Of a stretch of DNA of 32,000 nt, positions 2,040-26,000 are shown in pieces. This stretch comes from Okeania sp. (GTDB lineage Bacteria; Cyanobacteriota; Cyanobacteriia; Cyanobacteriales; Microcoleaceae), in assembly GCF_035285525.1 (NCBI RefSeq), contig NZ_JAYKGW010000154.1, forward strand, positions 5,870 through 37,869, in the 5' to 3' direction. A program made the position numbers and the translations under genes. How positions within the stretch are numbered: position 1 is the stretch's first letter; each line of letters opens with the position of its first letter. The notes under the pieces were generated by a model. The model made no database searches. It saw only the letters and a program-made list of their open reading frames with translations, and was not told where the DNA came from.

Positions 2040-2051
2040 ATATAGATTATC

Positions 2052-2088: not shown

Positions 2089-2094
2089 AAACAG

Positions 2095-3842: not shown

Positions 3843-3864
3843 GTAGGGGTTGGGTCTCCAAACC
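3843..3864. repeat. GGTTGGG-TCT-CCAAACC hairpin repeat (family copy, opposite orientation)
   Basis: gtaggggttgggtctccaaacc. It is preceded by ttttttttactaatataaattgtaacgttttatag, which also occurs at 3388-3424. Confidence 0.8.
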
Positions 3865-9092: not shown

Positions 9093-10286
9093 GTGAAGAT
9101 ACTATTAGTTTGTACAGAAAAATTGCCAGTACCTTGTATACGAGGTGGAGCTATTCAAACATATATAGATGGTATTCTACCCTACCTAAAACGAGAACAT
9201 GAAATCACAGTATTCTCATTAGCAGACCCAGAACTACCAGATCGGGAAATTAGAGAAAATATTCGCTACCAACGTGCTAGTAGAACAACATCAGAAGAAT
9301 ACTATCAAGCAGTAGCAGATTTTGTAGCAGGACAACAATTTGATTGGATAGTAATATACAATCGTCCCAAATATTTACCAATAGTTGCTAAGGCAGCTCC
9401 AAATACTCGGTTTCTACTAAGTATGCACAACGAAATGTTCCATACTAAGAAGATAGAACCAGAAGAAGCAAAAATATGCTTGGATCGAGTAGAAAAGGTA
9501 GTCACGGTAAGTAAATTTATTGCTGATGGGATAGCCAAGTTATTTCCAGAATATAAACACAAGCTACAACCTGTATATGCTGGAGTAGACCTCAAGCGTT
9601 TTCAGCCAAGATGGACAGAAGGGGGGGGAGAAAAACGCCAACAAATGTTGGCAGCTCATGGTTTAGAAGGTAAACAAGTAATCCTTTGTGTGGGCAGGTT
9701 AACAGATAAAAAAGGACCACATATTTTAATATCTGCGATCGCCAAAGTAATCAAAAAACACCCATCTGCTGTACTATTGCTAGTAGGAAGTAAGTGGTAT
9801 GGTAATAACAACGAAAATGATTATGTTCGTGAGATTAAAGGAAAAGCCGAAAAATTAGGATCGGCAGTGCAGATGACAGGATTTATTCCTCCATCAGAAG
9901 TTGCAGATTATTTCCTATTAGGTGATATATTTGTATGTGCTTCTCAATGGGAAGAGCCTCTAGCTAGAGTTCATTACGAGGCAATGGCAACTGGACTATG
10001 TACGATTACTACCGCTAGGGGAGGAAACCCAGAAGTAATTGTGCCTGGGAAAAACGGTATTGTCATCACAGATTATGAAAATCCGAATGCCTTTGCCAAG
10101 CAGATAGATTACTTATTATCTAAACCCAAGGAAAGTGAAGCAATGGGAAGAACAGGTCGTGAGTTGGCTGAACTATATTATAGTTGGTCAAGGGTGGCTT
10201 GGGATATCCTAAGTATAATAAACGATTCAAAATCACTGCCTTTAGAGAAACTAAACTCAATAGAGCAAGATAAAGAAGCTGGATAA
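9093..10286 (+). CDS. Glycosyltransferase, GT4 family (GT-B fold, retaining type)
   Basis: 397 aa with a GTG start giving MKILLVCTE. It has the E-x7-E motif (EEPLARVHYEAMATG), GRLTDKKGPHILI and the C-terminal Glycos_transf_1 pattern. It is on the same strand as the first PKS gene and 260 bp upstream of it. Confidence 0.85.
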   Translation: MKILLVCTEKLPVPCIRGGAIQTYIDGILPYLKREHEITVFSLADPELPDREIRENIRYQRASRTTSEEYYQAVADFVAGQQFDWIVIYNRPKYLPIVAKAAPNTRFLLSMHNEMFHTKKIEPEEAKICLDRVEKVVTVSKFIADGIAKLFPEYKHKLQPVYAGVDLKRFQPRWTEGGGEKRQQMLAAHGLEGKQVILCVGRLTDKKGPHILISAIAKVIKKHPSAVLLLVGSKWYGNNNENDYVREIKGKAEKLGSAVQMTGFIPPSEVADYFLLGDIFVCASQWEEPLARVHYEAMATGLCTITTARGGNPEVIVPGKNGIVITDYENPNAFAKQIDYLLSKPKESEAMGRTGRELAELYYSWSRVAWDILSIINDSKSLPLEKLNSIEQDKEAG

Positions 10287-10557
10287 ATCGAATCCGATTT
10301 TTCCATATCAAAGTCAGACTTACTTAATATAAGGATAGGAATTATATAAAATCCGATTGATGATACGGTAACTGTTGTATATAACCTCCTTAATCTAAGT
10401 ATAGTCTCAATTTAGTTTCCAGGCTTCAATATTTTCTTTTTTCTTAATGTATGACATTTGACTCTATTTGTCATACTACGATGACTAAATTACTCGGGTT
10501 CTACATCATACCCTAAAACCCAGAACAAACTCAAGAATATTTGTATTGGTTGATTTT

Positions 10558-13500
10558 ATGAAGGAACAACAAAAAAGTGACCTAACAGCTATTATTGGCA
10601 TAGCTTGTCGATTTCCAGGGGCAAATGACTATAATCAGTTCTGGGAAAATATAGAAGCAGGAGTAAATAGCATTAGTGAAATTCCTCCCCAAAGGTGGGA
10701 AATAGAAAAACATTATTCTCCTCTTCCTAATCAACCAAATAAGACAATAAGTAAATGGGGTGGATTAGTAGAAGGTATAGATGAGTTCGATGCCGAGTTT
10801 TTTAGTATTTCTCCGAGAGAAGCAGGAAAGGTAGACCCACAACATAGAATAATGTTGGAACTGAGCTGGTCTTGTATCGAAGATGCGGGTTACTCACCAT
10901 CTGCATTTTCGGGAAAAGATGTGGGTGTTTTTATGGGGGCTTGTAACTATGACTCCATTCTCTTGATGAACCGAAATCAAGACAATGTAGAAGGTCATAG
11001 TGGAACGGGAACTTGGACTTGTATGATTCCCAACCGTATCTCTTCATTTTTTAATCTGCATGGTCCAAGTATTCCTATAGATACAGCTTGTTCGAGTTCA
11101 TTAGTAGCTGTTCATTATGCACTTAAGTCCCTAAAAGAATCAGAATGTGAAATGGCATTAGTGGGTGGCATCAGCGTATTATTTACCTCAACAACATATA
11201 TCCAGATGAGTCAACTGGGGATGTTGTCACCAACAGGTCAATGTAGAACATTTAGTAGTGATGCTGATGGTTATGTTAGGGGAGAAGGAGCAGGAGTAGT
11301 TTTATTAAAGCCTCTGACCAAAGCAATGGAGGATGGAGACCGGATTTATGGTGTAATTAAAGGAAGTGCTATTAATCATGGAGGTAAAGCTAGGACTATC
11401 ACATCTCCCAATGTTTATTCCCAAGCTCAAGTTATTCGTTCTGCTTATACTAATGCCAATGTTTCCCCGAATACAGTATCTTACATGGAATCCCATGGAA
11501 CGGGGACACCATTGGGAGATCCAATCGAAGTTAATGCTTTGAAAAGAGCCTACAGACAACTATATCAACAGTATGGAGTAGAAAAAACAGATAATTCCTA
11601 CTGTGGAATAGGAGCAGTAAAAAGTAATATAGGGCATTTAGAAGGAGCAGCAGGGATTGCTGGACTAATAAAAGTCTTGTTAGCAATGAAGTACAAAAAG
11701 CTACCCAAAATTGTTAACTTCAAGGAATTAAATCCACGGATTAGTCTGAAAGGTACTCCTTTTTATCTCATAGAGGAAACCCAAGAATGGGAAAGATTAA
11801 AAAATGAATCAGGGGAAGATATTCCGAGACGAGCAGGTTTAAGTTCCTTTGGTATCGGTGGTGTTAATGCTCATATTGTATTAGAAGAATCCCCAGAAGT
11901 AGAAAGGGTAGGGAATATAGAGGGTTCAGTTAATATTTTAAGTTTGTCGGCGAAAACAGAAACAGCTCTTGCTGATCTAGTTAATAGTTATGAAAATTAT
12001 TTAGAAGCAGAAAATAATGATGAGTTAGCAGATATTTGCTACACAGCAAACATTGGGAGAAACGACTTTAGTCATAGATTAGCATTCATCACTTCCGGAA
12101 AACCAGATTTATTAGAAAAAATTAAACAATACAAACAGGGAGAGGAAGTTACTGGCATCTGTTCGGGAAAAATAACCAGCCAAACTACGACAAAAATAGC
12201 TTTTCTATTTACTGGTCAAGGTTCTCAATATCTGCAAATGGGAAGGGAGTTATATAATACTCAACCAACTTTTAAGGAAGCTATCGACAAGTGTAATGAG
12301 ATTCTGGGAAAATATCTAGAAGTTCCTTTATTAGATGTACTTTATCCTGATGATGAAACTTCGACTTTAATCAACCAAACAGCTTATACTCAACCAGCTA
12401 TATTTGCTCTAGAGTATGCCTTAGCTAAGTTATGGTCATCTTGGGGTATTAAACCAGATGTAGTCATGGGTCATAGTGTAGGTGAATATGTCGCAGCAAC
12501 AGTGGCTGGAGTATTTAGTTTAGAGGATGGTCTGAAATTAATTGCTACTAGGGGTCGGTTGATGCAACAGTTACCCGCAGGTGGAGAAATGGTGTCGGTG
12601 ATGGCATCGGAGTCAAAAGTAGAATCTGTTATTACTCCTTATACAGACAAGGTAGCGATCGCTGCGATAAATGGACCTCAGAGTATAGTGATATCAGGAG
12701 CTGCGCCAGAAGTAAAAGATATTATTAGTAGTTTAAAATCAGAAGGAATCAAAGCCAAAAAACTACAAGTATCCCATGCTTTTCATTCACCGTTGATGGA
12801 ACCAATGTTGAAAGAATGGGAAGCAGTAGCGAGTCAACTAACTTACAATCAGCCCAAGATACCAGTAGTATCAAACGTTACAGGAAAGGTGGCAGATGAA
12901 AGCATAACAACAACCAAATATTGGGTAGATCATGTACGTCAACCAGTAAGATTTTTCCAAGGGATGGAAGTCTTACATCAAGAGGGTTATGACATATTCC
13001 TAGAAATCGGGCCGAAACCAATATTATTGGGTATGGGGCGTCGGTGTTTACCCGATCATCTAGGAGAATGGTTACCATCGTTACGTCCTAATGCCGATGA
13101 ATGGCAACAAATATTATCAAGTTTAGGGAAGTTGTATGTTAAGGGGGTAGAAGTTGATTGGTTAGGATTCGAGCAAGATTATAGCCGTAAGAAAGTTTCA
13201 TTGCCTACATATCCATTCCAACGACGACGGTATTGGGTAGAGGAGAGTAGCCAGCAGAAACAGCGATCGCCAAGAACTTTTGGCTCCCAAGTGCCAATAC
13301 ATCCATTATTGGGTTACAAAATTGATATCGCAGGCCAGCAAAAGATTTTTGAATCATTCCTGGGAGCAGAGAATCCAGAATACCTCAAAGATCATAAAGT
13401 ATTTGCAGAACCTCTGTTACCAACAACAGCATATTTGGAAATGGCTTTAGCAGCAGGTAAAAGCCAATATCAAACTCCACTGATAGAAGTAAAAGAACTG

Positions 13501-16500
13501 AGTATAGAGCGGGGGTTAGTTTTATCCGAAGCCGAGAAAATAGTTCAGACGATACTTACCCCATTAGAAAATGATATCTATCAGTTCCAGATATTTTCTC
13601 AACAACAGGAAGGGGAAGAAAACCAAAAATGGCTACTCCATGCAGCAGGTAAAATACAGCCAGGAGCGCCAGAAGTAAAAGAAACCAAATTTGAAACAGA
13701 GAAATATTTAGCTGAATGCAGTGAATCTGTAGAAGTTGCCAAACATTATCAGAGTAGTGAGGAAATGGGAATTAGTTATGGTCCCAGTTTTCAAAGAATA
13801 AAACAGCTCTGGAAAGGAGATAGTCAAGCTATCGCTAAAATTATTCTGGCTCCAGAAATGGCAGCTACTATTGGGGAGTATAATATACATCCAGTAATGT
13901 TAGATTCTGCATTGCAGGTAATCTTTAATGCACTGCCAGTAGAAGACAATGATAGTCAACAAACATATTTGCCAGTAGGGGTAGATAAGTTAACAATTTA
14001 TAATCCGGCAGAATCATCTATGTATGCTTATGGGTCAGTAGATGGTGCGGGTGCAGGAAATTGGAAAGCTGATGTGATTCTCGGCAACGAATCAGGTAAA
14101 ATAGTTGCTAAAATTTCTGGGTTACGAGTGAAAGCAGCAAGCAAGGAAGCTTTAATTGGCAAAAAAGAAGAATCTATTACTAACTTGCTGTATGAGATAG
14201 AATGGCGGGCAAAAGGACGTTTGGGCAGGACGTTGCCACCAGATTATTTGCTGGCTCCTAAAGATATTGAACAGCAACTAGAACCAACTATTAAGGAATT
14301 GATAGTTCAAGCTCAATTAGAAAGCTATCAAGAAGTCCCAGGAAAACTAGAAGCATTAAGTCTGGATTATGTGTTACAGGCGATTAAAGAATTAGGGTGG
14401 AATTATCAAGCTGGAGATAGTTTTGATAGTGAAAAAGAATTAGAAAGCTTAGGTATCGTAGAAATTCAACAACGTCTTTTCAAACGAATGCTACAGATGA
14501 TGGCAGAAGGCGGAATAATTGAACCAGTAGCTGGCACAGATACTCAGTGGAATGTACTGCAAACATTAGATGTAGAGCCAAAGCAAGGGAAAAAAAGAGG
14601 AGACGAACTACTGAGTCAATATCCAGAGGCAGGAGCTGAGTTAACACTTTTAAATCGTTGTGCGTCTAAATTAAGTTTGGTATTGCGGGGAGAAACTGAC
14701 CCGGTACAGTTAGTGTTTCCATCAGGAGATTTGAGTACAGCAACTAGGGTATATCAAGACTCCACTATAGCGAAATTGATGAATACTGTAGTAGAAAAAG
14801 CGATCGCTACAGCTATTGCTCAACTACCAAAATCTCAAAGTGTCAGGTTGTTAGAAATAGGAGCAGGAACTGGAGGAACTACAAGTTATATTTTACCGAG
14901 TCTACCAGAAAATAATACGGAGTATATATTTACTGACTTGGGAGCTTTGTTTACAGCCAAAGCCAAAGAAAGATTTGGGGATTATCCTTTTGTAGATTAT
15001 CAGATATTAGATATAGAAGCAGATCCAACAACTCAGGGTTATAATGCTCATCAATATGATGTAATTATTGCAGCGAATGTTCTCCATGCAACAGCTAACT
15101 TGACAGAAACCCTATCTAATGTACGAAAACTTTTAGCACCAGGGGGAATATTAGTTTTATTTGAACTAACAAGTCGTCAGCGATGGTTAGATTTAGTATT
15201 TGGATTATTGGAAGGATGGTGGAGATTCCAAGATTTAGAAATACGACCTGATTATCCTCTACTGAGTCGTTCCAAGTGGCAAGAGGTATTGCAGAAAACA
15301 GGTTTTACTGAAGTCGTAAGTTTACCAGAAGTTGAGGGAATGCCAGAAGTTTTGTATCAGCAATCAGTTATTGTTGCTCAGAATACAAAGGTATTACCAC
15401 CATCATCAGAATCTAAAAATTGGTTGATATTAGCAGACAAACAGGGAGTAGCTGAAGAGTTAGCAACTAAACTAAAGTTTATGGGAGATGTTCCTCTTTT
15501 GGTATTTGCTGGAGAGAAATATCAAGATTTGGGAGAGGGTAAGTTTACTATTAATCCTAACAACCCAGAAGATTTTAAACAATTGATGGGAGCGGTTTCT
15601 TCCTTGTATGGAGTTGTGCAATGTTGGACGACGGAAACTGGAGGCAGTGAAAAAATAGAAGAGTTATCGCGGTACGGGTGTGGAACAACTTTATATTTAG
15701 TTCAAGCACTGGTACAAGGAGGATTATCTCAGCCACCTCGTTTATGGTTAGTCACTTCTGGTTCTCAACCAGTACCATCTAGTAATTCCTTAATGGCAAA
15801 AGTAGGTCAATCTTCACTATGGGGAATGGGGAAAGTTATTAGCTTAGAACATCCAGAATTTAATTGTGTACGGATAGATTTAGATTCAGAAACAACTATA
15901 GAGAATCAAGCTAATGCGTTGTTTAAGGAAATTTGGTCAGAAGATTTAGAAGATCAGGTAGGGTTCCGTGAAGATTATCGTTATATAGCTAGATTAGTTG
16001 CCAGTCATCACCAGGAACTCCCAGCTACAAGAGGACTGACAATACCATCCCAACCCTATAAACTGGGTATATCAGAAAAAGGCAGTTTAGACAGCTTAAC
16101 CCTAGAAACAATCAAGAGAAATGCTCCAGCACCAGGGGAAGTAGAGATTCAGGTAATGGCAACCGGACTTAATTTCCTAGATTTGGTGGCAACACTAGGA
16201 TTAGTACCAGATGAAGTAGATGGTGTATCTCAAAAACATTTGAGAGAAATGGATAGATTTGGGGGAGAATGTGGTGGTTATGTAGTAGCAGTAGGAGAAG
16301 GAGTAAAAGGTTTAGAAATTGGTGATGAAGTTGTAGCTATGGCTAGAGGTAGCTTCAGTCAATATGTGACAGTTAACGCCAGTTATGTAGTGCCGAAGCC
16401 AGAAAATATAACTTTTGCAGAAGCAGCATCAATACCAGCTAACTTTTTAACTGCTTATTATGCTTTACATCACGTTGCCAAGATTACTAAAGGCGATCGG

Positions 16501-18210
16501 ATTCTGATTCATGCAGCAGCCGGAGGTACAGGAATGGCTGCGGTGCAAATAGCTCAAAAAGTAGGTGCAGAAGTTTTTGCGACAGCAAGTCCTCCTAAAT
16601 GGGAGACTCTAAAACGAATGGGAGTCAAATATATTATGAATTCCCGGACTGTGGAATTTGCTGACCAGGTAATGGAGTTTACTGAAGGGAAAGGAGTAGA
16701 TATTGTTCTTAACTCTCTGACTTCAGGAGATTTTGTGAGTAAAGGTTTGTCAGTAGTTACTTCTCAAGGTCGTTTTGTAGAAATAGGGAAACGGGGGGTA
16801 TGGACATCTAGTCAAGTAGCAGAAGTGAGACCAGATATATCTTATTCAGTAGTAGATTTGCTGCGAAAATCTGAGGAAGAACCAGAATTAATCAATTCCA
16901 TGTTGCAGGAGTTAACAGCAGACTTCTCCAACGGTTTATTGAAGCCACCACCTCTAAAAGTATTCCCTATAGAGGAAGTTGTCAGTGCCTTCCGTTATAT
17001 GCAGCAAGCTAAACACATAGGTAAAATTGTGGTTACTCAACCCAAACAAGAGCCTGACAAACCTGTAAGTTTCCGTGATGACGCTGCATACTTAATTACG
17101 GGGGGTATGGGAGATATGGGTTTACTTATATCTCGTTGGATGATTGCCAAAGGAGCCAAAAAATTAGTGCTAGTTGGACGTAGCACTCCCAATGAAACTG
17201 TAAAAGAGAAATTAGCAGAGTTAGAAAGTGCTGGAGCATCGGTGATAGTAGAAAAAGCTGATGTGTCCGACTGGGAAGCAATGAAGGGAGTTATGGAGAG
17301 GATTAATAATTCAAATACACCATTAGCAGGAGTTATGCACTCTGTTGGTGTATTATCAGATGGGGTGCTGCAAAATCAAACTTGGTCAAGCTTCGAGAAA
17401 GTGATGTCACCCAAGGTTTATGGTAGTTGGTATCTACACCAGTTGACTAAAGACCAGCCATTGGACTTTTTCTTACTGTTTTCTTCAGCAGCATCCTTGT
17501 TTGGCTCCACTGCTCAGGCCAACCACTCAGCCGCCAATGCCTTTTTAGATGGTTTAGCTCATTATCGTCGAGGGATGAAATTACCAGGATTGAGTATTCA
17601 TTGGAGTACGGTATCTCAGATTGGGGAAGCTGCTGCTATAGGGGCAGATGTGAGACTTGCAAAGCAAGGTGTAGGAGCGATTACCCCAGGTCAAATATTA
17701 GAATCTCTGGAACTATTAATGAGTGGTAAAGCTGCTCAGGATATAGAAGTTGGAGTAGTCCCGATTGACTGGTCAGCTTGGCAAGATAGAGTAAGCAAAT
17801 GGAGGTTTTTAGCAGATTGGCAAAGATCTGTTGTTGAAGTTACAGCAACAGAAACCAAACTTTTAGAACAGCTAAAAGAATCATCACCAGAAGAACAAGA
17901 AAAAATATTAGTAGATTACCTGAAAGGTAAAGTAGCTAACATTTTTGGCATGACAGGATCCGAGACAATAAGTATAGAGGAATCTCTAACTACTATGGGA
18001 CTTGATTCTTTGATGGCCGTTGAACTAAGGAATCTGATCCAAAAAGAATTAGGATTTGATGTACCTATGCAAACAATCATTGAAGGTATCAGTATTTCAG
18101 AAATAGTTGATTTAGTTTCTAAACAGCTATTACTAGAACAAGTTAGTTACTCAAATACTGCTTCACAAACTGAAGAAATAGATGAAGATATGGAGGAAAT
18201 TACTTTATGA
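10558..18210 (+). CDS. Type I polyketide synthase, KS-AT-DH-cMT-ER-KR-ACP (PKS1)
   Basis: The start is taken at ATG 10558 (MKEQQ...). The track uses an upstream TTG at 10546, and the residue numbers below count from 10546. All seven domains were recognised by motif (see the domain features). The stop overlaps the next gene's start (ATGA at 18207-18210). Confidence 0.97.
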   Translation: MKEQQKSDLTAIIGIACRFPGANDYNQFWENIEAGVNSISEIPPQRWEIEKHYSPLPNQPNKTISKWGGLVEGIDEFDAEFFSISPREAGKVDPQHRIMLELSWSCIEDAGYSPSAFSGKDVGVFMGACNYDSILLMNRNQDNVEGHSGTGTWTCMIPNRISSFFNLHGPSIPIDTACSSSLVAVHYALKSLKESECEMALVGGISVLFTSTTYIQMSQLGMLSPTGQCRTFSSDADGYVRGEGAGVVLLKPLTKAMEDGDRIYGVIKGSAINHGGKARTITSPNVYSQAQVIRSAYTNANVSPNTVSYMESHGTGTPLGDPIEVNALKRAYRQLYQQYGVEKTDNSYCGIGAVKSNIGHLEGAAGIAGLIKVLLAMKYKKLPKIVNFKELNPRISLKGTPFYLIEETQEWERLKNESGEDIPRRAGLSSFGIGGVNAHIVLEESPEVERVGNIEGSVNILSLSAKTETALADLVNSYENYLEAENNDELADICYTANIGRNDFSHRLAFITSGKPDLLEKIKQYKQGEEVTGICSGKITSQTTTKIAFLFTGQGSQYLQMGRELYNTQPTFKEAIDKCNEILGKYLEVPLLDVLYPDDETSTLINQTAYTQPAIFALEYALAKLWSSWGIKPDVVMGHSVGEYVAATVAGVFSLEDGLKLIATRGRLMQQLPAGGEMVSVMASESKVESVITPYTDKVAIAAINGPQSIVISGAAPEVKDIISSLKSEGIKAKKLQVSHAFHSPLMEPMLKEWEAVASQLTYNQPKIPVVSNVTGKVADESITTTKYWVDHVRQPVRFFQGMEVLHQEGYDIFLEIGPKPILLGMGRRCLPDHLGEWLPSLRPNADEWQQILSSLGKLYVKGVEVDWLGFEQDYSRKKVSLPTYPFQRRRYWVEESSQQKQRSPRTFGSQVPIHPLLGYKIDIAGQQKIFESFLGAENPEYLKDHKVFAEPLLPTTAYLEMALAAGKSQYQTPLIEVKELSIERGLVLSEAEKIVQTILTPLENDIYQFQIFSQQQEGEENQKWLLHAAGKIQPGAPEVKETKFETEKYLAECSESVEVAKHYQSSEEMGISYGPSFQRIKQLWKGDSQAIAKIILAPEMAATIGEYNIHPVMLDSALQVIFNALPVEDNDSQQTYLPVGVDKLTIYNPAESSMYAYGSVDGAGAGNWKADVILGNESGKIVAKISGLRVKAASKEALIGKKEESITNLLYEIEWRAKGRLGRTLPPDYLLAPKDIEQQLEPTIKELIVQAQLESYQEVPGKLEALSLDYVLQAIKELGWNYQAGDSFDSEKELESLGIVEIQQRLFKRMLQMMAEGGIIEPVAGTDTQWNVLQTLDVEPKQGKKRGDELLSQYPEAGAELTLLNRCASKLSLVLRGETDPVQLVFPSGDLSTATRVYQDSTIAKLMNTVVEKAIATAIAQLPKSQSVRLLEIGAGTGGTTSYILPSLPENNTEYIFTDLGALFTAKAKERFGDYPFVDYQILDIEADPTTQGYNAHQYDVIIAANVLHATANLTETLSNVRKLLAPGGILVLFELTSRQRWLDLVFGLLEGWWRFQDLEIRPDYPLLSRSKWQEVLQKTGFTEVVSLPEVEGMPEVLYQQSVIVAQNTKVLPPSSESKNWLILADKQGVAEELATKLKFMGDVPLLVFAGEKYQDLGEGKFTINPNNPEDFKQLMGAVSSLYGVVQCWTTETGGSEKIEELSRYGCGTTLYLVQALVQGGLSQPPRLWLVTSGSQPVPSSNSLMAKVGQSSLWGMGKVISLEHPEFNCVRIDLDSETTIENQANALFKEIWSEDLEDQVGFREDYRYIARLVASHHQELPATRGLTIPSQPYKLGISEKGSLDSLTLETIKRNAPAPGEVEIQVMATGLNFLDLVATLGLVPDEVDGVSQKHLREMDRFGGECGGYVVAVGEGVKGLEIGDEVVAMARGSFSQYVTVNASYVVPKPENITFAEAASIPANFLTAYYALHHVAKITKGDRILIHAAAGGTGMAAVQIAQKVGAEVFATASPPKWETLKRMGVKYIMNSRTVEFADQVMEFTEGKGVDIVLNSLTSGDFVSKGLSVVTSQGRFVEIGKRGVWTSSQVAEVRPDISYSVVDLLRKSEEEPELINSMLQELTADFSNGLLKPPPLKVFPIEEVVSAFRYMQQAKHIGKIVVTQPKQEPDKPVSFRDDAAYLITGGMGDMGLLISRWMIAKGAKKLVLVGRSTPNETVKEKLAELESAGASVIVEKADVSDWEAMKGVMERINNSNTPLAGVMHSVGVLSDGVLQNQTWSSFEKVMSPKVYGSWYLHQLTKDQPLDFFLLFSSAASLFGSTAQANHSAANAFLDGLAHYRRGMKLPGLSIHWSTVSQIGEAAAIGADVRLAKQGVGAITPGQILESLELLMSGKAAQDIEVGVVPIDWSAWQDRVSKWRFLADWQRSVVEVTATETKLLEQLKESSPEEQEKILVDYLKGKVANIFGMTGSETISIEESLTTMGLDSLMAVELRNLIQKELGFDVPMQTIIEGISISEIVDLVSKQLLLEQVSYSNTASQTEEIDEDMEEITL
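10585..11886 (+). other. PKS1 ketosynthase domain
   Basis: IGIACRFPG at the N-terminus. The active-site Cys182 is in IDTACSSSL (codon 11089-11091). The His motifs are ESHGTGT and SNIGHLEGAAG. The domain ends at GGVNAHIVLEE. Confidence 0.95.
12193..13086 (+). other. PKS1 acyltransferase domain (malonyl-type signature)
   Basis: FLFTGQGSQ, the active site GHSVGEY (Ser644), YTQPAIFALEYAL, and HAFHS (aa 744-748). The HAFH motif is associated with malonyl-CoA specificity. Confidence 0.9.
13297..14145 (+). other. PKS1 dehydratase domain
   Basis: IHPLLGYKI, LKDHKVFAEPLLPTTAYLEMA (His950 and Pro959, with Ala in place of the usual Gly at +4), GISYGPSFQ, and HPVMLDSALQ. Confidence 0.85.
14608..15375 (+). 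other. PKS1 C-methyltransferase domain
   Basis: The SAM motif I is LLEIGAGTGGTT (nt 14848-14883). Also YDVIIAANVLHAT and LLAPGGILVLFE. It sits between DH and ER as in cMT-containing modules. Confidence 0.85.
16057..17037 (+). other. PKS1 enoylreductase domain
   Basis: MDR-type ER with the NADPH motif LIHAAAGGTGMAAVQIAQ, a C-terminal AKHIGKIVV and an N-terminal GEVEIQVMATGLNF. Confidence 0.9.
17083..17625 (+). other. PKS1 ketoreductase catalytic subdomain (catalytic Tyr position is His)
   Basis: The Rossmann motif is YLITGGMGDMGL and the Lys is in SPKVYGSW. The region that normally reads G..NYAAANAF reads STAQANHSAANAF. His2327 is codon CAC at 17524-17526. Confidence 0.85.
17887..18123 (+). 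other. PKS1 acyl carrier protein domain plus acidic C-terminal tail
   Basis: The phosphopantetheine site is MGLDSLMAVEL (Ser2488, codon 18007-18009). The tail SQTEEIDEDMEEITL follows. Confidence 0.9.
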
Positions 18211-18371
18211 AACTGACCGAAATTCTGTCTCAAATCTCAAGCCAAGGCATTAAATTATGGGCTGAAGGTGATGAGTTGAAAATCCGTGCCCCCAAGGGAG
18301 CTTTAACAACAGAAACTCGCGATTTATTATCCAAAAATAAACTCGAATTACTTCATTTACTTCAGGAAAAA
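18207..18371 (+). other. TubC-type N-terminal docking domain
   Basis: ILSQISSQGIKLWAEGDELKIRAPKGALTTETRDLLSKNKLELLHLL matches the L..L...G..LW.EGD.L...AP.G.L......L...K.ELL.LL pattern of NRPS N-terminal docking domains that follow a PKS. Confidence 0.8.
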
Positions 18372-21300
18372 AGTAGTAATGTTAGTGCTACATCAGTACC
18401 TTTAGTTTATGTTGGTAGGGATAAAGATTTACCAGTTACTTATCAACAGGAGCGTCTCTGGACTATAGATCAGTTAATGGGAAATAAGTTAAATCTCAAT
18501 GTTTCTACGGCTCTAAAAATTGAAGGTTTAATAGATATTCCATTGCTCCAAAAAAGCTGGAATGAAATTATTAGTCGTAATGAAAGTTTGAGGACTATTT
18601 TCAGTTTTGCAGAAGGATCGTTAATTCAGGTTATTGTTCCTAGTTTAGATTCTAAGATTTCAGTAATAGATTATCAAGGCTTAAGTAAGACGGAGCAAGA
18701 GAGGGCAATTTCGGAAATTATTGAAAAGGAAGCCGAACAATATTTAGATTTATCTCAAGGACCACTGGTACATTTAAAACTTTTGAGATGTAGTGAGACA
18801 GAGGGTGTATTAATATTAGTATCTCATCATATTATTAGTGATGGTTTATCTCACAATTTTATATTCCGCGAACATATACTTTTGTATGATTCTTATCTAA
18901 GTCAAAAACCTTCTCCGTTACCAGAATTAGATATTCAATATGGAGATTATTCTGTTTGGCAACGTCAGTTATTACAAGGAGAAGTATTACAAAAGGGAAT
19001 AGATTTTTGGAAACAAGAACTAGCAAATATTTCTACTTTATATCCTGTACCATCTGATATCTTTCAAGTATCTCCAGGATTTAAAGCTATTAAAAAGAAT
19101 TTTTCCATATCTATGACTACATGGCCTTTAATACAAAAGGTGAGTAATCAATATAGTGTTACTCCTGTAGTTATTTTTCTATCAGTATTTTATGTATTGG
19201 TATTTCAATACTCTTTAAAACAGGATATTGTAGTTGGTCTTCCAGTTTCAGGAAGGTTGCACCATAAACTAGAATCTGCTATTGGTTACTTTACTGATAG
19301 TATTCTATTACGAGGCAAAATACCTGATAGTTCTATTACTTTTAAAGAATTACTGAAGAAAGTTAAAGAGGTGACGATAAAAGCTTATGCTAACCAACAC
19401 ATTCCTCTCAACTTTGTATCAGAATTTCTGAATAAGCAAAACAATCAACAGTATAGAAATTTATTTCAGATTTTCTTTGACTATATTGACTTTGGAGGAA
19501 AAGAAAAGATTGAATCTCCTAACATGACAGGAACTATACTGGAAGAAAAGTTCCCTACAGATATAGATTTGTTCTTTCTTTTATTAAAATATGAACATGA
19601 GCTAAAAGGGTCTTTTGCTTACAATCCTGATTTGTTTGAAGAAGAAACAATTACAGGTTTTATAGATTCCTTTTTATTACTTCTAGAAAAAGCAATTAAT
19701 GCTCCAGAGACGAAAATAAACGATTTAGAAATATCAGAAAATCTGGCAAAACGTAAGACAGAGATTCACAGTCAATCAAGAAAAATAAATCTGATAGAAA
19801 CTGCTTTGAAATCTATTCCTGAAGTAAAAGAATCTGCTATTTTAAACAGGGATAATCAACTGGTTGCTTATCTGGTGATTGAGGATAATTATTCTGTAGA
19901 AAAAGTAAAATATTTCCTAGAATCTTATCTAGATTCCGATTTTCTCCCTAAGGCTTATGTACCTGTTTCTAGCTTACCAAAAACAGAATCAGGAGAAATA
20001 GATGAAGCTGTTTTAACAAGTTTAGAAGTTATTGACTCAGAATTAATAAATCTTTGGGAACAAAAACTGCGATCTCATCCCGAAATAGAAGAAGTAGCAG
20101 TAGTAGTGCAGCGGAAAGAAGCTTATCCAGTTATAGAAAGTAGGGGTTTGGAGACCAAACCCTATTTGGTCTCCAAGCCCTACCCCGGAACACCCGACTA
20201 TCCAATACAACTTACCCAAGAAAATATTCCAGATACTGCCCCTGGAGAAGTAGATGAGATAGCAGCATCGGTAGAATTTAAAACTTGGGCAGACTTATTA
20301 CCAGGTACTGATGAACCAGCAATATATAGCACCGATGGTCGCCAACCTCTGACTCACTCACAACTCAAAGATTTTGTCAAGTGTCCTCCAGATAACGCTA
20401 GTCTCAGTTATCTGGGGATTAAAATAACTGACCGGGTATGTGCTGCCATGGACAATGGACCAGAAGCAGCAACAGCATTTTTGTCCTTGGCACAACAATG
20501 TGTGTTTGCACCCATTAGCACATCTTTAACAGAAAAGCAAGTGCAATTTGAGTTGGAAGATCTGGGTGCAGTAGCTTTAGTATTGCAAAGAGGAGAAGCT
20601 AACAGCAGGGAGAATGCTAAGTTAAAAGCTTGTGCCGAAAGTTTAGGAGTGCGGGTGATTGAGCTAATACCCGATGCTTCAGTCTGCGGTTTATTTACTC
20701 TCGAAGAAGTCACGACTAATCAGGAAAATCATCAACCAATAACAGCAGAGGACAATAAACCGACTCGTGACCATGTAGCTTTAGTGCTGCATACCAGCGG
20801 TACAACCAGAAAACCAAAAACAGTACCTTTGACTCATGGAAATTTGACAGCAGGTTCCCTGACTATTAGTCGGACGATACAACTGACTCCAGAGGATACT
20901 TGCATCAATATTATGCCTCTGTTTCATATTCACGGTCTTTCCGTTAATATTCTGGCTTCGATGTTAGCAGGTGCCAGCGTACTTTGTACTCCAGGGTTAT
21001 ACGCCACTGAAAACGGAGTAGGTGATTTCTTTAAGTGGTTGAAACCAGATGAGATAGGCGAGGGAAAAAAAATCACTTGGTATTCTGCTGTACCAACCAT
21101 GCACCAAGCAATTTTGGAATATGCAGAACAAACTATAACTGAAATAGGTAAAGCGCCCGACCATTCTCTCAGATTAATTCGTAACTGTTCGGCAGCACTG
21201 CTACCAGCTATTGTTGATAGAATGGCAACAGCATTTAATTGTGAAGTTTTGCCTACTTATGCGATGACAGAATCTATGCCTATTTGTAGTCCAGAAGTAG

Positions 21301-22583
21301 GAAAGGGTTTGCTCAAACGAGGTTCTGTAGGTCGTGCTGCTGGCCCGAAAGTAATTATTGGTGATGTGAAGACAAATGGGCAAGGCAAACCAGTATTAAA
21401 TGTGCTGGAACCTTATGCAGAAGGAGAGGTAATGGTTCGGGGTGCTTGCGTTACTGCCGGATATGAGTTACGAGAATGGATGGATTATAATCCCAATGAG
21501 GAAGCTTTTATTGACGGTTGGTTGAGAACTGGAGATAAGGGTTACAAAGACGAAGATGGTTATGTTTATCTGGTAGGAAGGTTCAAAGAAATTATTAACC
21601 GAGCCGGGGAAAAAATTAGCCCGATGGTGGTAGAGGATGTATTGCAGCGCCATCCCGCAGTCGGACAGGTAGTTGTGTTTGCTGCTCCCCATGAACTTTT
21701 GGGTGAAGTGGTGGGAGCTGCAATAGTGCCAGTTCCTAATCAACCACGACCAACTCTGGCAGCATTACGGCAGTTTGCCATGAAGGAAAAAGAACTAGAA
21801 ACCCAATGGTTGCCAGAATGCTTGGTCTGGATGAGTGCTATTCCTAAAGGTCTGACTGGAAAACCTGCTCGTATAGGTTTAGCCAAAAGGTTAGAGTTGC
21901 CGACTTTGACGACTGATGTGACGAAATCGCCCCGAACTTTTGTAGCAACAGAAGGAGCGGATGGTAAGTATGTTTTAGAAACATTAGAACATCAAATTGA
22001 GAATGGTAAAGGAGGTTGTCAGAGTTTACAACAGTTGACAGTTTATTTTACTTCTAAGACCACAGAATTTTCTCTCAGTAAGTTAGAGGGTTTGGAAGTA
22101 AGCGATCGCTTTGGTACTCTGAGTAAAATTCTGCCTTCTGCTTTCGTGCAGTTAGAAAGATTACCATTAACATCTGATGGAAAACTAGACCGGAAACGGT
22201 TACAAAGCCATGAAAAAAATGGTAGTTCTCCAACTGTACAACAAGGAAATAAAACTGAGCAAAAAATTGTTGCTATTTGGAAGGAGGTACTGCAAATAGA
22301 AGAAGTTGGAATTTATGATAACTTTTTTGAGCTAGGAGGTAAGTCTGTTCTACTGATACAAGTTTATGGCAAGTTACAAGAAATATTTGATATGAGTAAT
22401 TTGAAAGTTGTTGACTTGTTAGCTAACCCAACTGTTCATTCGTTAAGCGAATTTATTGTCAGTGGTGGTGCAACTGAATTAGATAAAAAGATCAAAGTTA
22501 GTTATGAGAAACGTGTAAGTAAACGTCTCTCTAAGAAAAATGAAAGGGTTAATATGCGGAAGAAACTCCGTGCTAACAGATAG
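18207..22583 (+). CDS. Atypical NRPS-like protein: docking domain, C, A-subdomain remnants, nested AAE3/Pcs60-like ligase, PCP
   Basis: 1458 aa. The ATG overlaps the PKS1 stop. The domains were identified by motif (see the domain features and findings). Confidence 0.93.
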   Translation: MKLTEILSQISSQGIKLWAEGDELKIRAPKGALTTETRDLLSKNKLELLHLLQEKSSNVSATSVPLVYVGRDKDLPVTYQQERLWTIDQLMGNKLNLNVSTALKIEGLIDIPLLQKSWNEIISRNESLRTIFSFAEGSLIQVIVPSLDSKISVIDYQGLSKTEQERAISEIIEKEAEQYLDLSQGPLVHLKLLRCSETEGVLILVSHHIISDGLSHNFIFREHILLYDSYLSQKPSPLPELDIQYGDYSVWQRQLLQGEVLQKGIDFWKQELANISTLYPVPSDIFQVSPGFKAIKKNFSISMTTWPLIQKVSNQYSVTPVVIFLSVFYVLVFQYSLKQDIVVGLPVSGRLHHKLESAIGYFTDSILLRGKIPDSSITFKELLKKVKEVTIKAYANQHIPLNFVSEFLNKQNNQQYRNLFQIFFDYIDFGGKEKIESPNMTGTILEEKFPTDIDLFFLLLKYEHELKGSFAYNPDLFEEETITGFIDSFLLLLEKAINAPETKINDLEISENLAKRKTEIHSQSRKINLIETALKSIPEVKESAILNRDNQLVAYLVIEDNYSVEKVKYFLESYLDSDFLPKAYVPVSSLPKTESGEIDEAVLTSLEVIDSELINLWEQKLRSHPEIEEVAVVVQRKEAYPVIESRGLETKPYLVSKPYPGTPDYPIQLTQENIPDTAPGEVDEIAASVEFKTWADLLPGTDEPAIYSTDGRQPLTHSQLKDFVKCPPDNASLSYLGIKITDRVCAAMDNGPEAATAFLSLAQQCVFAPISTSLTEKQVQFELEDLGAVALVLQRGEANSRENAKLKACAESLGVRVIELIPDASVCGLFTLEEVTTNQENHQPITAEDNKPTRDHVALVLHTSGTTRKPKTVPLTHGNLTAGSLTISRTIQLTPEDTCINIMPLFHIHGLSVNILASMLAGASVLCTPGLYATENGVGDFFKWLKPDEIGEGKKITWYSAVPTMHQAILEYAEQTITEIGKAPDHSLRLIRNCSAALLPAIVDRMATAFNCEVLPTYAMTESMPICSPEVGKGLLKRGSVGRAAGPKVIIGDVKTNGQGKPVLNVLEPYAEGEVMVRGACVTAGYELREWMDYNPNEEAFIDGWLRTGDKGYKDEDGYVYLVGRFKEIINRAGEKISPMVVEDVLQRHPAVGQVVVFAAPHELLGEVVGAAIVPVPNQPRPTLAALRQFAMKEKELETQWLPECLVWMSAIPKGLTGKPARIGLAKRLELPTLTTDVTKSPRTFVATEGADGKYVLETLEHQIENGKGGCQSLQQLTVYFTSKTTEFSLSKLEGLEVSDRFGTLSKILPSAFVQLERLPLTSDGKLDRKRLQSHEKNGSSPTVQQGNKTEQKIVAIWKEVLQIEEVGIYDNFFELGGKSVLLIQVYGKLQEIFDMSNLKVVDLLANPTVHSLSEFIVSGGATELDKKIKVSYEKRVSKRLSKKNERVNMRKKLRANR
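18420..19721 (+). other. Condensation domain
   Basis: C1 is TYQQERLW, C2 is LRTIFSF, C3 is SHHIISDGLS (His-His-x3-Asp-Gly, nt 18825-18845), C4 is YGDYSVWQ and C5-like is IGYFTDSILLRG. Confidence 0.9.
19779..20024 (+). other. A-domain C-terminal subdomain-like remnant 1 (no preceding core, A10 Lys lost)
   Basis: aa 525-606 read RKINLIETALKSIPEVKESAILNRDNQLVAYLV...LPKAYVPVSSLPKTESGEIDEAVL. This resembles the post-A8 to A10 region of NRPS A domains, but with GEID where GK(I/V/L)D is expected. Confidence 0.6.
20040..20129 (+). other. A-subdomain-like remnant 2, N-terminal part
   Basis: aa 612-641 read ELINLWEQKLRSHPEIEEVAVVVQRKEAYP, a second copy of the IE..L..HP.V.EA.VV element. It is interrupted after about 30 aa. 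Confidence 0.5.
20140..20184 (+). repeat. 45-nt inverted-repeat element (GGTTTGGAGACCAAACC family, both orientations) inserted in frame in the coding sequence
   Basis: gtaggggtttggagaccaaa-ccctat-ttggtctccaagccctacc is translated as (S)RGLETKPYLVSKPYP. The length is 15 codons with no stop. The same motif is abundant in the intergenic DNA of this window. Confidence 0.9.
20274..21902 (+). other. Complete ANL-superfamily adenylating domain, AAE3/Pcs60 (oxalate-CoA ligase)-like
   Basis: aa ~690-1232 contain LHTSGTTRKPK (A3, nt 20787-20819), MPLFHIHGL, WYSAVPTMHQAIL, LRLIRNCSAALLP, YAMTES, GWLRTGD, GRFKEIINRAGEKISP and PKGLTGKPAR. The motif spellings match my memory of the plant AAE3 / yeast Pcs60 clade (LHTSGTTSRPK, LPLFHVHGL, WYTAVPTIHQIIL, IRSCSASL) better than they match NRPS A domains. 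Confidence 0.8.
22020..22205 (+). other. A-subdomain-like remnant 2, C-terminal part (intact A10)
   Basis: aa 1272-1333 read SLQQLTVYFTSKT....LSKILPSAFVQLERLPLTSDGKLDRKRL. This is the canonical LP.(A/Y)..P..FV.L..LPLT.(N/D)GK.DR..L ending of an NRPS A domain. Confidence 0.65.
22254..22466 (+). other. Peptidyl carrier protein domain
   Basis: IVAIWKEVLQIEEVGIYDNFFELGGKSVLLIQV, with the phosphopantetheine Ser1380 at codon 22344-22346. A Lys/Arg-rich tail follows (KKIKVSYEKRVSKRLSKKNERVNMRKKLRANR). Confidence 0.85.
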
Positions 22584-22607: not shown

Positions 22608-22627
22608 GGGGTTTGGTCTCCAAACCC
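22608..22627. repeat. GGGGTTTGGTCTCCAAACCC hairpin repeat (family copy) 25 nt after the NRPS stop
   Basis: Read directly. It is followed by gaaaccgggtttg (22640-22652) and the heptamer motif cagttatcagttat. Confidence 0.85.
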
Positions 22628-22764: not shown

Positions 22765-22867
22765 CGGTTCCCGAAAAATTGGAGAACAAGGTTATAGCAT
22801 CAGAAAAGAGAGAAAACTCCTAGTTTGTAGAGGGTGCGGTTCCCGAAAAATTGGAGACCAAACCCCT
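22765..22867. repeat. Direct repeat cggttcccgaaaaattggaga (22765-22785 and 22837-22857), the second copy running into a GGAGACCAAACCCC motif
   Basis: The two 21-nt copies are identical. The second continues as ttggagaccaaacccctaag. Confidence 0.85.
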
Positions 22868-23006: not shown

Positions 23007-26000
23007 ATGAATCAACCAGAAGAAGCACAACAGCAATATAATGATAATGAAATTGCTATCATAGGAATGTCTGGGCGTTTTCCAGGGGCAAGAAACTTGG
23101 ATGAGTTTTGGGATAATCTCAAGAATGGTGTTGAATCTATCTCATTATTATCAGATAAACAATTAATAAAATCTGGTGTTGCCCCCGAAATACTCAATAA
23201 TCCTAGCTATGTAAAAGTCGGTTCTACGGTTTCAGACATTGAAATGTTTGATGCTAACTTTTTTAACTACAGTCCCAGAGAAGCAGAAGAAATAGATCCA
23301 CAACAACGACTTTTTTTAGAGTGTGCTTGGGAAGCAATCGAAAGTAGTGGTTATAATCCAGAAAAATATGAAGGTTCCATTGGGGTTTATTCTGGCAGTG
23401 GACTGCCCACCTATTTAATGTATAACCTCGAAGAACAAGATTTTATTCTCCTGGGTAATCGCTACTTTACCCAAATGGTGGCTAATGACAAAGATTACTT
23501 AGCAACCCGCACCGCTTACAAACTAAACCTTACCGGACCAGCAATCACTATTCAAACAGCTTGCTCAACATCATTAGTTGCCGTACATTTGGCTTGTCAA
23601 AGTTTGCTCAATGGAGAATGTGACATGGCTTTAGCAGGTGGTGTTTCCATCCAAGTCCCTCAAAATGTGGGATACTTACATCAAGAGGGATTGATCGGTT
23701 CTCACGATGGTCATTGTCGTGCCTTTGATGCTAAAAGTTCGGGAACAGTTTTTGGTAATGGTGTGGGAGTTGTGTTACTGAAACCACTTCCAGATGCTAT
23801 AGCAGATGGAGATATTATTCATGCTGTGATTAAGGGTTCGGCGATTAATAATGATGGTTCTTTGAAACTAGGTTATACTGCTCCCAGTGTAGATGGTCAA
23901 GCAGCAGTTATTTCTGAAGCTCAAGCTGTCGCGAGTATAAGTCCAGAAACAATTACATACATAGAAGCTCATGGTACGGGGACAGAATTAGGAGATCCCA
24001 TTGAAATTGAAGCTTTAACCAAAGCCTTTTCCGAAAGCACCGATAAAAAACAATTTTGTGCTATAGGTTCCCTGAAAACAAATGTGGGACACATGAATAC
24101 GGCAGCAGGGGTAGGAGCATTGATTAAAACTGTTTTGGCTCTCAAACATAATTTAATACCTCCCAGTCTCCACTACGAAAAACCTAATCCCCAAATTAAT
24201 TTTAGCGATACTCCCTTTTACGTCAACAATACTTTATCTGAGTGGAAAGGGAACGGCATTCCTCTACGAGCTGGAGTTAGTTCTTTTGGAATAGGTGGAA
24301 CTAACTCTCACGTTGTGTTGGAAGAAGCTCCCACTCTGGAGAAAGCAGAAGATGATTTACCACGTCCGGTTCATATATTAACTTTGTCAGCAAAGACTGA
24401 CACAGCTTTATCAGATTTAGTCGATAGTTATCATCAGTATTTAAAGAGTAATCCAGATTTAGATATAGGAGATGTTTGTTTCACTGCTAATACAGGAAAA
24501 GTTCATTTTCACCACAGATTAGCAGTTGTTGCTGCCAACCAAACAGAATTAATCGAAAAACTAGAACAGTTAAAATCAGTAGGGACGTTGTATGCAACGT
24601 CCCTACCTGGTATCTGTTCTGGAAAACTGTTAATGAATGCTGCTCCTCCTAAAGTCGCCTTTCTATTCACTGGTCAAGGTTCCCAATATCTCAATATGGG
24701 CAAGGAATTATACGAACAAGCACCAGTTTTCCAAGCAACACTTGATGAATGTGATGAAATATTAGGGGAACTTGGTGTCACCTCCATATTAGAAATTATC
24801 TATCCTGATGCAGAGACATCACCCCTAGACCAAACAGCTTATACCCAACCGGCTCTATTTGCTATAGAATATGCTCTAGCCAAATTATGGGAATCTTGGG
24901 GCATTCAACCAGATGTAGTTATGGGTCATAGTGTCGGTGAATATGTGGCAGCAACAGTGGCCGGAATATTTAGTTTAGAAGATGGTCTAAAATTGATAGC
25001 AGCAAGGGGTCAGTTGATGCAAAAGTTACCTGCTGGTGGAGAAATGGTGGCGGTGATGGCATCAGAAGCAAAAGTCAAAAGTCTCCTTACACCTTATAGA
25101 GAAAAAGTAGCGATCGCAGCTATAAATGGACCCAAAAGTGTGGTAATTTCTGGTGAAGCGACAGCAGTAAGGGAAATTGTTAGCAGTTTAGAATCAGAAA
25201 AAATCAAAACTAAACAATTACAGGTATCTCACGCATTCCATTCACCATTGATGGAACCTATGTTAGCAGAATGGGAAGCAGTAGCTCAGGAACTGACTTA
25301 TAATCAACCAGAAATTCCGATTATATCGAACGTTACCGGAACAATAGCAGACGCAAGTATTACAACACCAAAGTATTGGGTAGATCATGTACGTTTACCA
25401 GTAAGGTTTGTTGACGGTATGAATGCTTTAGACAAACAGGGGGTTGACATTTTCCTAGAAGTCGGACCAAAACCAATATTGCTGGGAATGGGTCGCCGAT
25501 GTTTACCTAAAGATGTGGGTGTTTGGTTGCCATCATTACGTCCTGATGTAGGGCAGTTTTCTGAGATACTTTGTACTTTAGGAGAGTTATATGTGCGGGG
25601 TGTAAAAGTAGACTGGGTAGAATTTGATGGAGAATATATTCGTCAGAAAGTGACATTACCTACTTACCCATTCCAGCGACAAAAATACTGGCTCGATAAC
25701 TATTCACGGGGAGCAAGTTCGGCTTCAGTTAATCGGGATCGGAGTTTGATCGCTGAGGAGGAAATATCCAATTCTTTATTAGGTCGTAAATTACCTTTAC
25801 CCTTTGCCCAACAATTTCGCTTTCAGACTAAATTAACTCCTGAGTTTCCTTCTTATGTAAAAGACCACAGATATTACGGCAGAATAGTTGTAGCTGGTGC
25901 ATCTCACATTGTTTTTGGTTTGCTAGCGGGTAAAGAAGCACTAAAAAGTGAGTCTTGCATTGTAGAAAATATTGAGTTTTTGCAGATATTGGGAGCAGAT

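Follow-up and report, generated by a model that had tools for sequence, protein, structure and literature searches.

The 32,000-nucleotide stretch of Okeania sp. DNA considered here (contig NZ_JAYKGW010000154.1, positions 5,870 to 37,869 of the forward strand; hereafter called the window) carries an uninterrupted open reading frame at window positions 18207-22583 on the forward strand, whose 1458-amino-acid product is 100% identical to WP_324237365.1, an Okeania sp. protein annotated as a ‘condensation domain-containing protein’. We consider this protein likely to be an elongation module of a hybrid polyketide synthase (PKS) and nonribosomal peptide synthetase (NRPS) assembly line, descended from modules with the architecture C-(Ax remnant)-[N-half]-KAL-KR-[C-half]-T. 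In this notation, C is a condensation domain, the Ax remnant is what is left of a degenerate adenylation (A) domain, KAL is the ligase of keto-acid depsipeptide modules, KR is a ketoreductase and T is a thiolation (carrier) domain, whereas the two halves are pieces of a single small C-terminal subdomain of an A domain (Asub). The KAL-KR cassette of the ancestor would have been replaced by a ligase of the oxalyl-CoA synthetase (OCS) type without a KR, and the resulting module would load a small acid onto its T domain, after which the C domain would form an ester. The scaffold itself is known. What is new here is the exchange of the KAL-KR cassette for an oxalate-ligase-type enzyme, with no KR remaining.

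The region was brought to attention by a preliminary description, made from the sequence alone, of positions 19722-22205 (amino acids 506-1333 of the protein) as a condensation module that lacks an adenylation core and carries two Asub copies, one of which is split by a nested ligase. That description also suggested searching ‘other Nostocales genomes’, and thus placed the DNA among the wrong relatives, as Okeania belongs to the Oscillatoriales.

Domain layout and the split A subdomain

From the N-terminus, the protein is composed of a docking domain, a C domain, a core-less Asub remnant, an N-terminal piece of a second Asub of about 30 residues, a disordered linker, a ligase of the ANL superfamily, the C-terminal piece of the second Asub and a T domain. 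The docking domain is of the TubC_N type (amino acids 5-54, positions 18219-18368; PF18563, E 1.5e-16) and is followed by the C domain (amino acids 74-513, 18426-19745; PF00668, E 1.9e-83), whose HHxxxDG motif is intact as SHHIISDG. A canonical NRPS elongation module with a C-A-T arrangement would continue with an amino-acid-activating A domain, whereas the Okeania module has no A domain of this NRPS type. Pfam detects no AMP-binding core (PF00501) between amino acids 505 and 690, where the C domain ends at residue 513 and the Asub remnant begins at about residue 523, which bears out the earlier claim that the host A core is absent. The only AMP-binding core matched by Pfam (amino acids 702-1086), together with an AMP-binding_C match (amino acids 1142-1219), lies within the embedded ligase (amino acids 690-1232, 20274-21902), a complete enzyme with both a core and its own Asub that was identified by phmmer searches against PDB, Foldseek comparisons and pairwise identity. 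The T domain, or peptidyl carrier protein (PCP) domain (amino acids 1352-1417, 22260-22457; PP-binding, PF00550, E 3e-8), carries the serine for phosphopantetheine (Ppant) attachment in the sequence LGGKS. All reading-frame features given here are on the forward strand.

The first Asub copy, or Ax remnant (amino acids 523-606, 19773-20024), is recognized by three approaches. Residues 530-596 alone match PF13193 (E 5e-7), a profile built from the orthologs and sister modules described below (up to amino acid 607) aligns with canonical NRPS Asub sequences with E 3.3e-22 when compared by using hhalign, and the AlphaFold2 (AF2) model predicts a helix-strand-strand-helix-strand-helix fold with a confidence (pLDDT) of 87-95. 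As had been noticed from the letters of the sequence, this copy has lost the lysine of its A10 motif, which is replaced by glutamate (SGEIDEA, compared with the canonical NGKVDRR).

The second Asub copy is divided. Its N-half (amino acids 607-642, 20025-20132), comprising one helix and the first strand, is supported by hhalign, AF2 and substitution rates, and residues 606-636 fall on Asub profile columns 21-39 (E 5.6e-5). The C-half (amino acids 1272-1335, 22020-22211) opens with a conserved SLQQLTxYFT motif and retains intact A9 and A10 motifs (LPLTSDGKLDRKRL), and residues 1273-1347 fall on columns 46-108 (E 1.5e-15). Neither half alone matches any Pfam profile, whereas the two halves stitched together cover the entire PF13193 profile (E 0.0075) and align colinearly with Asub in hhalign (probability 99%, E 2.6e-18), with a score close to the sum of those of the two parts. 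Moreover, a profile of the stitched halves plus the T domain gives one unbroken match to the Asub-PCP regions of LgrA, SrfA-C, TycA and EntF in PDB, and in these solved NRPS structures the match continues across the junction of the two halves, which falls where the A8-A9 hairpin turns. The split thus lies at this turn, between columns 39 and 46 of the Asub profile. The preliminary description was therefore accurate in recognizing a copy that breaks off after some 30 residues and resumes after the ligase, directly before the PCP, with its A10 lysine intact.

In the AF2 model of amino acids 505-1458 (mean pLDDT 86, pTM 0.71), all Asub pieces are predicted with pLDDT values of 85-96; the N-half forms a helix and a strand (pLDDT 88-96), and the C-half forms a strand-helix-strand-helix arrangement. 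The two spacers on either side of the ligase are of different character. The first (amino acids 643-689, 20133-20273) is disordered (pLDDT 30-45) and variable, with insertions and deletions among orthologs, whereas the second (21903-22019) is a linker of only 39 amino acids located where the sister modules carry their KR, and gives no KR match in Pfam. Downstream of the T domain is a basic tail (amino acids 1421-1458 plus the stop codon, 22467-22583), which is modelled as a helix by AF2 (model residues 926-953) and is presumed to serve as a docking element towards the next PKS.

Insertions at the same hairpin, between A8 and A9 of Asub, are known from interrupted A domains such as those of TioS and PchE, which carry methyltransferase (MT), KR, oxidase (Ox) or epimerase (E) inserts. 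However, the hosts in those examples keep a working A core and receive a tailoring domain, whereas the core of the Okeania host is gone and the insert is itself an adenylating enzyme.

Relation to keto-acid depsipeptide modules

The preliminary description held that a complete adenylating enzyme nested at this position was not a known architecture. This proved incorrect, because a split pseudo-Asub with pieces of about 30 and 70 amino acids placed around an intact ligase is a published hallmark of keto-acid depsipeptide modules. In the StsA module (PDB 6ULW), as described in PMC10510592 and PMC7923214, approximately 30 N-terminal and 70 post-KR residues form a ‘pseudo Asub’. The recent dolastatin 15 study (2026 PNAS, PMC13643306) describes both C-Ax-KAL-KR-T and C-KAL-KR-T modules, reports that the four-domain modules retain partial Ax regions with motifs A6-A10, and infers that KAL was inserted by recombination between C-Ax and KR-T. 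The duplicated Asub remnants of the Okeania protein are therefore the Ax remnant and the split pseudo-Asub of this known module family.

This relationship is directly visible in the nearest non-orthologous proteins, which come from Symploca/Caldora (P0013-P0017) and from Moorena producens JHB (P0010 and P0011). Amino acids 1-642 of the Okeania protein are 36-59% identical to these proteins (53-59% for P0013-P0017), and residues from about 1260 to 1420 align again after a long insertion in the sister proteins. The sister modules share the docking domain, the C domain, the Asub remnant and the N-half, then carry an AMP-binding domain and a KR (PF08659), and close with the C-half and a PCP. Both halves of the pseudo-Asub are conserved in them, and the C-half is 39-65% identical to the segment that follows the KR. 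Their inserted unit is of the established kind, as that of P0013 matches StsA (6ULW) with E 8e-237 over the adenylation and KR domains. No KR is present in the Okeania protein, in which 39 amino acids separate the ligase from the C-half at the place where the sister modules have a KR of about 500 amino acids.

The C domains carry the same signal. A tree of C domains, constructed by bootstrapped neighbour-joining (NJ) only and not by maximum likelihood, places the modules with a pseudo-Asub in a clade with 100% support, apart from canonical C domains. Within this clade, the KR-less modules are monophyletic (84%), nested above the KAL-KR modules P0010 and P0011, which split off first (92%).

Comparisons of domains one by one reveal that the flanks and the cassette have not travelled together. 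The Okeania protein is 50-65% identical to P0011 in the flanks but only 23% in the ligase, with the KR absent. P0011 and the pair P0013/P0014 present the reverse pattern, with 89% identity in KAL and 73-75% in KR but only 38-60% in the flanks (C, Ax remnant, and C-half plus T); for P0011 and P0013 alone, the KR value is 75% and the flanks are 38-56% identical. The latter mosaic points to recent cassette exchange or homogenization between modules of different genera. Flanks and cassette thus appear to have separate histories, in a manner that fits the recombination breakpoints proposed in PMC13643306, and the alignments are most simply read as one event in which an OCS-like ligase took the place of KAL-KR, with breakpoints at the published junctions.

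The resemblance to keto-acid depsipeptide modules can therefore be described precisely. StsA module 1 (6ULW), CrpD-M2, ClyF and HctE/F (C-KAL-KR-T) as well as Dol15D-M2 and PyrG (C-Ax-KAL-KR-T) likewise hold a ligase between Asub pieces of about 30 and 70 amino acids, directly before the T domain, and the family has in common with the Okeania module the degenerate A-domain remnant after C, the C-domain clade and the recombination junctions. In contrast, the Okeania ligase is not a KAL (23% identity to the sister KALs) and is without the Gly-Met motif, the KR is missing, and PKS modules adjoin the protein on both sides. Because there is no KR, reduction of a keto acid in cis is excluded in this module.

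The arrangement is not confined to one genome. Orthologs with the same architecture and 59-85% identity are present in Okeania, Dapis sp. BLCC M172, Roseofilum capinflatum, Roseofilum casamattae and a cyanobacterial metagenome-assembled genome (MAG), and no other architecture of the C-ANL-T kind was encountered among the top matches from 5.8 billion proteins. No ortholog has a disrupted reading frame. The ligase pocket and the motif containing its A10 lysine are identical in the five full-length proteins aligned (Okeania and four orthologs), with the A3 motif varying conservatively (RKPK or KRPK), and the HHxxxDG motif and Ppant serine are kept in the Okeania protein and five orthologs. Ratios of nonsynonymous to synonymous substitution rates (dN/dS), which come from the single pair Okeania and Dapis and are noisy for the short regions, are 0.04-0.08 for the ligase, 0.04 for T, 0.05 for the N-half, 0.23 for the C-half, 0.28 for the C domain and 0.40 for the Ax remnant.

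These data bear on the notion that the assembly line bypasses the module, or its ligase, as a relic in decay, or that the ligase is a free CoA ligase that does not load the T domain. The degenerated host A domain and the Ax remnant, which evolves fastest among the domain-like parts, would suit such a view. However, frames are intact throughout, and the A3, A5, A7, A8 and A10 motifs of the ligase, the HHxxxDG motif and the Ppant serine are all present in the Okeania protein. Furthermore, constraint is strongest on the ligase and the T domain, and docking elements are found at both ends, such that we regard decay or bypass as very improbable. The low dN/dS values, intact motifs and distribution among orthologs instead argue that the C-ANL-T module is functional, and its KR-less, OCS-like form is conserved under purifying selection.

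The embedded ligase and its substrate

The strongest phmmer matches of the ligase in PDB are Lathyrus LsOCS (6QJZ, E 8e-72), Arabidopsis AAE3 (5IE0, E 6e-71) and yeast Pcs60 (8AFF, E 3e-63), and the best structural matches returned by Foldseek are AAE3 (target-normalized TM-score 0.85), Pcs60 and LsOCS; StsA is not among the top PDB matches by phmmer. Identity is 44-49% to OCS-like ligases and 23-26% to the sister-module KALs and NRPS A domains, with 23-25% for the KALs of P0011, P0013 and P0014. Against NRPS A domains, values of 25-33% were also obtained, of which the 33% covers only one segment of 183 residues. Where KALs have the motif FGMAEV, the Okeania ligase has YAMTES. In an NJ tree of ligases, the clade that includes the Okeania enzyme is separated from the bacterial OCS-like group with 100% support, yet falls inside the OCS-like family. 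Judged from its sequence, the embedded enzyme is thus a member of the OCS-like ANL clade, and neither an NRPS A domain nor a KAL. The preliminary description, which had pointed to the AAE3/Pcs60 clade from motif spelling and called residues 690-1232 a complete ANL enzyme, was correct on both counts, and none of the three findings that it had named as grounds for rejecting it was obtained.

The subclade is marked by the signature RNCSAAL / YAMTESMPICSP / TGKPARI. Its members (RNCSAAL / TESMPICSP; P0122-P0205) are dominated by sequences from marine-protist transcriptomes (MMETSP/EukProt), and the named matches include Effrenium voratum, Prymnesium parvum and a pelagophyte. They occur as free ANL proteins and as ANL-T and ANL-T-KS fusions, where KS is a ketosynthase. 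Loci of the subclade (L082 5662-8112; L083 8001-9767) include an ANL-T-KS fusion on a metagenome contig, and at least one metagenomic member lies beside a T-C protein in an operon-like series of FMO, ANL, T-C and further genes ending with an AMP-binding protein.

Relative to the characterized oxalyl-CoA synthetases (AAE3, 5IE0-5IE3; LsOCS, 6QJZ; Pcs60, 8AFF), the Okeania ligase shares the A3, A5, A7, A8 and A10 motifs and keeps or conservatively changes seven of eight pocket residues, Ser289 included. The oxalate pocket of AtAAE3 is formed by Val215-His216, Cys288-Ser289, Ala313-Met314, His319 and Lys500, among which Ser289 and His319 make the contacts that are specific to OCS enzymes (PMC8905533). 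The equivalents in Okeania are Ile-His, Cys-Ser, Ala-Met, Pro and Lys. Proline replaces His319 in the Okeania protein, in the seven orthologs aligned (four full-length, three partial) and across the related ‘NCSAAL’ clade, whereas bacterial OCS-like ligases have glutamine at this position. The enzyme differs from the characterized synthetases in having lost an oxalate-contacting histidine and in belonging to a separate subclade rich in marine-protist sequences, and also in being built into a 1458-amino-acid megasynthase with a carrier domain, whereas AAE3, LsOCS and Pcs60 are free-standing. The pocket has thus stayed small, but one carboxylate contact was lost.

Transfer to a carrier protein by an enzyme of this clade is plausible, because fusions of OCS-like ligases with T or T-KS occur in other proteins (P0133, P0184, P0206 and P0012). 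What is loaded is probably a small C2-C3 acid, most likely a 2-hydroxy acid that the C domain would esterify, although the identity of the substrate is uncertain. The preliminary description proposed a small carboxylic or dicarboxylic acid. We retain the small acid, but a dicarboxylic one is doubtful because one of the two oxalate-specific contacts is lost and because an oxalyl thioester would offer the C domain no nucleophile.

The logic of the assembly line favours a small 2-hydroxy acid that is loaded directly, as the C domain is from an ester-forming lineage, the module has no KR and no reductase is encoded nearby. In the mechanism we favour, the two Asub-like pieces are catalytically dead scaffolds, as shown by the missing A core and, in the first copy, by the loss of the A10 lysine. 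Like the pseudo-Asub of StsA, they may hold the T domain close to the embedded ligase. The ligase would adenylate a small C2-C3 carboxylic acid and pass it to the T domain, whereupon the C domain would join the 2-methyl-branched, fully reduced acyl chain arriving from upstream to the loaded unit. In its most coherent version, this scheme has glycolate, lactate or a similar hydroxy acid loaded directly and esterified at its 2-hydroxyl group, so that no KR would be needed. The product bound to T would then be extended by the downstream KS-AT-DH-KR-ACP module.

Hydroxy acids are activated directly in the fungal synthetases for enniatin, beauvericin and PF1022, which employ ordinary NRPS-type A domains for 2-hydroxy acids. 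If the hydroxy-acid reading is right, the Okeania module would follow the same logic, with no in-line KR and an ester formed by C. However, the fungal enzymes have neither a pseudo-Asub nor an OCS-like ligase.

Several considerations weigh against this mechanism. The packing of the N-half and C-half into one Asub-like domain is inferred from colinearity, model confidence values and the StsA precedent. Family precedent would favour planar 2-oxo acids over hydroxy acids, because LsOCS, as a characterized oxalyl-CoA synthetase, accepts oxalate and weakly glyoxylate but refuses glycolate and lactate (PMC8905533). In addition, the Ala-Met backbone position of the Okeania ligase is equivalent to the Gly-Met motif with which KALs sense the keto group, and the pseudo-Asub has been reported as exclusive to keto-acid-using NRPSs, according to a statement quoted in PMC7923214.

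A different proposal is that the ligase, in keeping with its family, still favours planar 2-oxo acids, namely glyoxylate, pyruvate or oxalate. The thioester would then undergo reduction or transamination by an enzyme acting in trans, or enter non-canonical chemistry, either ahead of the usual esterification by the C domain or in place of it. Besides the substrate range of LsOCS, it draws on the conserved equivalents of Ser289, Cys288, Ala313-Met314, His216 and Lys500 and on the descent of the module from keto-acid modules. Yet neither an oxo-acyl nor an oxalyl thioester offers a nucleophile to the intact C domain, the oxalate-specific contact His319 is proline in every member of the subclade, the module has no KR, and no stand-alone reductase or aminotransferase lies beside it in the window or in the Dapis or Roseofilum loci. 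We therefore judge 2-oxo-acid loading to be unlikely, while granting it the support of the family precedent.

A bolder extension of direct hydroxy-acid loading is that the pseudo-Asub and Ax remnant constitute a general socket for unrelated adenylating enzymes, here used to insert a glycolate-type C2 unit without a KR and thereby give an in-chain polyketide ester, and that ligases of the same subclade could load glycolate starters in dinoflagellates. The subclade is represented in transcriptomes of dinoflagellates, haptophytes and pelagophytes, and glycolate starter units are documented in dinoflagellate polyketides (PMC5484107), but as a whole we consider this idea speculative and rather doubtful.

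Genomic setting and significance

The linker between the N-half and the ligase contains an in-frame inverted repeat (20144-20180) with 16-nucleotide arms of 94% complementarity, spanning about 12 codons. The preliminary description had correctly seen a palindromic repeat between the halves, but it gave the length as 15 codons, and the element is a copy of a dispersed repeat. Its palindromic motif, GGTTTGGAGACCAAACCC, has 12 matches on both strands at about eight sites in the window (0 expected by chance), which are mostly intergenic: 1444-1461, 1675-1692, 1913-1930, 3616-3633, 3847-3864, 20145-20180, 22609-22626 and 22848-22865. Within a longer repeated unit, copies often form pairs or triplets at spacings of 231-239 bp. 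The repeat has no bearing on the architecture. We considered whether the palindrome might mark a mobile-element junction behind the cassette swap, and rejected this because it sits in a variable, disordered linker, because the Dapis ortholog already has one arm, and only one, at the same linker position, and because the motif is scattered through intergenic regions.

The module is flanked by two PKS modules on the same strand, both annotated by Pfam. The upstream module (10546-18210) has the composition KS-AT-DH-cMT-ER-KR-ACP, and its stop codon overlaps the start of the C-ANL-T gene in an ATGA sequence (18207-18210). It ends with an acidic C-terminal tail (EEIDEDMEEITL, 18150-18210) of the kind expected to bind a TubC_N-type docking domain. 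The downstream module (23007-28706) is KS-AT-DH-KR-ACP, and a third PKS open frame begins at 29224 and runs off the window. In this third PKS, at least four copies of the tandem peptide repeat PLPSPLEI follow the AT domain (31873-31998), and look like a repetitive proline-rich linker. The first PKS begins with a KS, and no loading domain is visible in it. Farther upstream, positions 78-3357 encode SufD-like (78-1331), SufS-like cysteine desulfurase (2095-3357), cytochrome b561-like and beta-lactamase-family proteins, and these genes mark the likely left boundary of the cluster near 9-10.5 kb.

The block of PKS, C-ANL-T and PKS is syntenic in Okeania, Dapis and Roseofilum, whereas the cyanobacterial MAG is represented by its protein only. 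Its surroundings vary. A GT4-type glycosyltransferase gene is located upstream in Okeania (9093-10286) and in Roseofilum (L003 1932-3077), a beta-branching cassette with an HMG-CoA synthase (HCS-ECH1-ECH2/ER) lies directly upstream in Dapis BLCC M172 (L001 1-3157), and a tandem-ACP module, KS-AT-ACP-ACP, is found downstream in Roseofilum. A single scan of genome contigs, aimed at the region downstream in Roseofilum, yielded paralogous PKS loci only, with Dapis BLCC M229 as the top match (59% identity), and did not recover the Roseofilum contig itself. The block seems to be shared by different pathways.

The proximity of the Dapis HCS cassette, or of the Roseofilum tandem-ACP module, to this block invites comparison with pathways of the malyngamide and jamaicamide type, in which PKS modules operate with HCS beta-branching. 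By this analogy, the ligase would load a small amino acid (glycine, alanine or beta-alanine), from which an amide would be made by the C domain. Roseofilum genomes are indeed reported to contain several ‘malyngamide-like’ clusters (PMC9967302). However, the ligase is far from NRPS A domains (23-26% identity) and its closest characterized relatives, the oxalyl-CoA synthetases, act on a non-amino acid, while the C domain falls inside a clade of ester-forming depsipeptide modules. Amino-acid loading is accordingly, in our view, highly unlikely, and the malyngamide/jamaicamide logic, which would be possible only with such loading, was set aside on the evidence of the ligase and the C-domain clade.

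Other known products fared no better as candidates. Looekeyolide, from Roseofilum, needs a hydroxy-methionine module followed by D-Leu or D-Phe. Canalesolide, from Okeania, is assembled with a terminal KS-AT-ACP-C-A arrangement and has no module like C-ANL-T. The upstream module does not fit aplysiatoxin.

With its scaffold, Ax remnant, C domain and T domain kept and a ligase of another ANL clade in place of the KAL-KR cassette, the Okeania protein is a naturally conserved counter-example to the view that the pseudo-Asub is exclusive to keto-acid-using NRPS modules. For module engineering, it suggests that foreign adenylating enzymes can be accommodated at the recombination junctions bordering the cassette. 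For genome mining, it illustrates how such modules can pass unrecognized, as Pfam sees only the C, AMP-binding and PCP domains and the KAL-KR sisters are annotated as ‘SDR family oxidoreductase’. Okeania, Dapis and Roseofilum thus share an uncharacterized block, in which the unusual module is set between two PKSs, that should add an unusual small acid to the growing chain, and through its ligase this cyanobacterial assembly line is tied to an enzyme clade found in abundance among toxin-producing marine protists.

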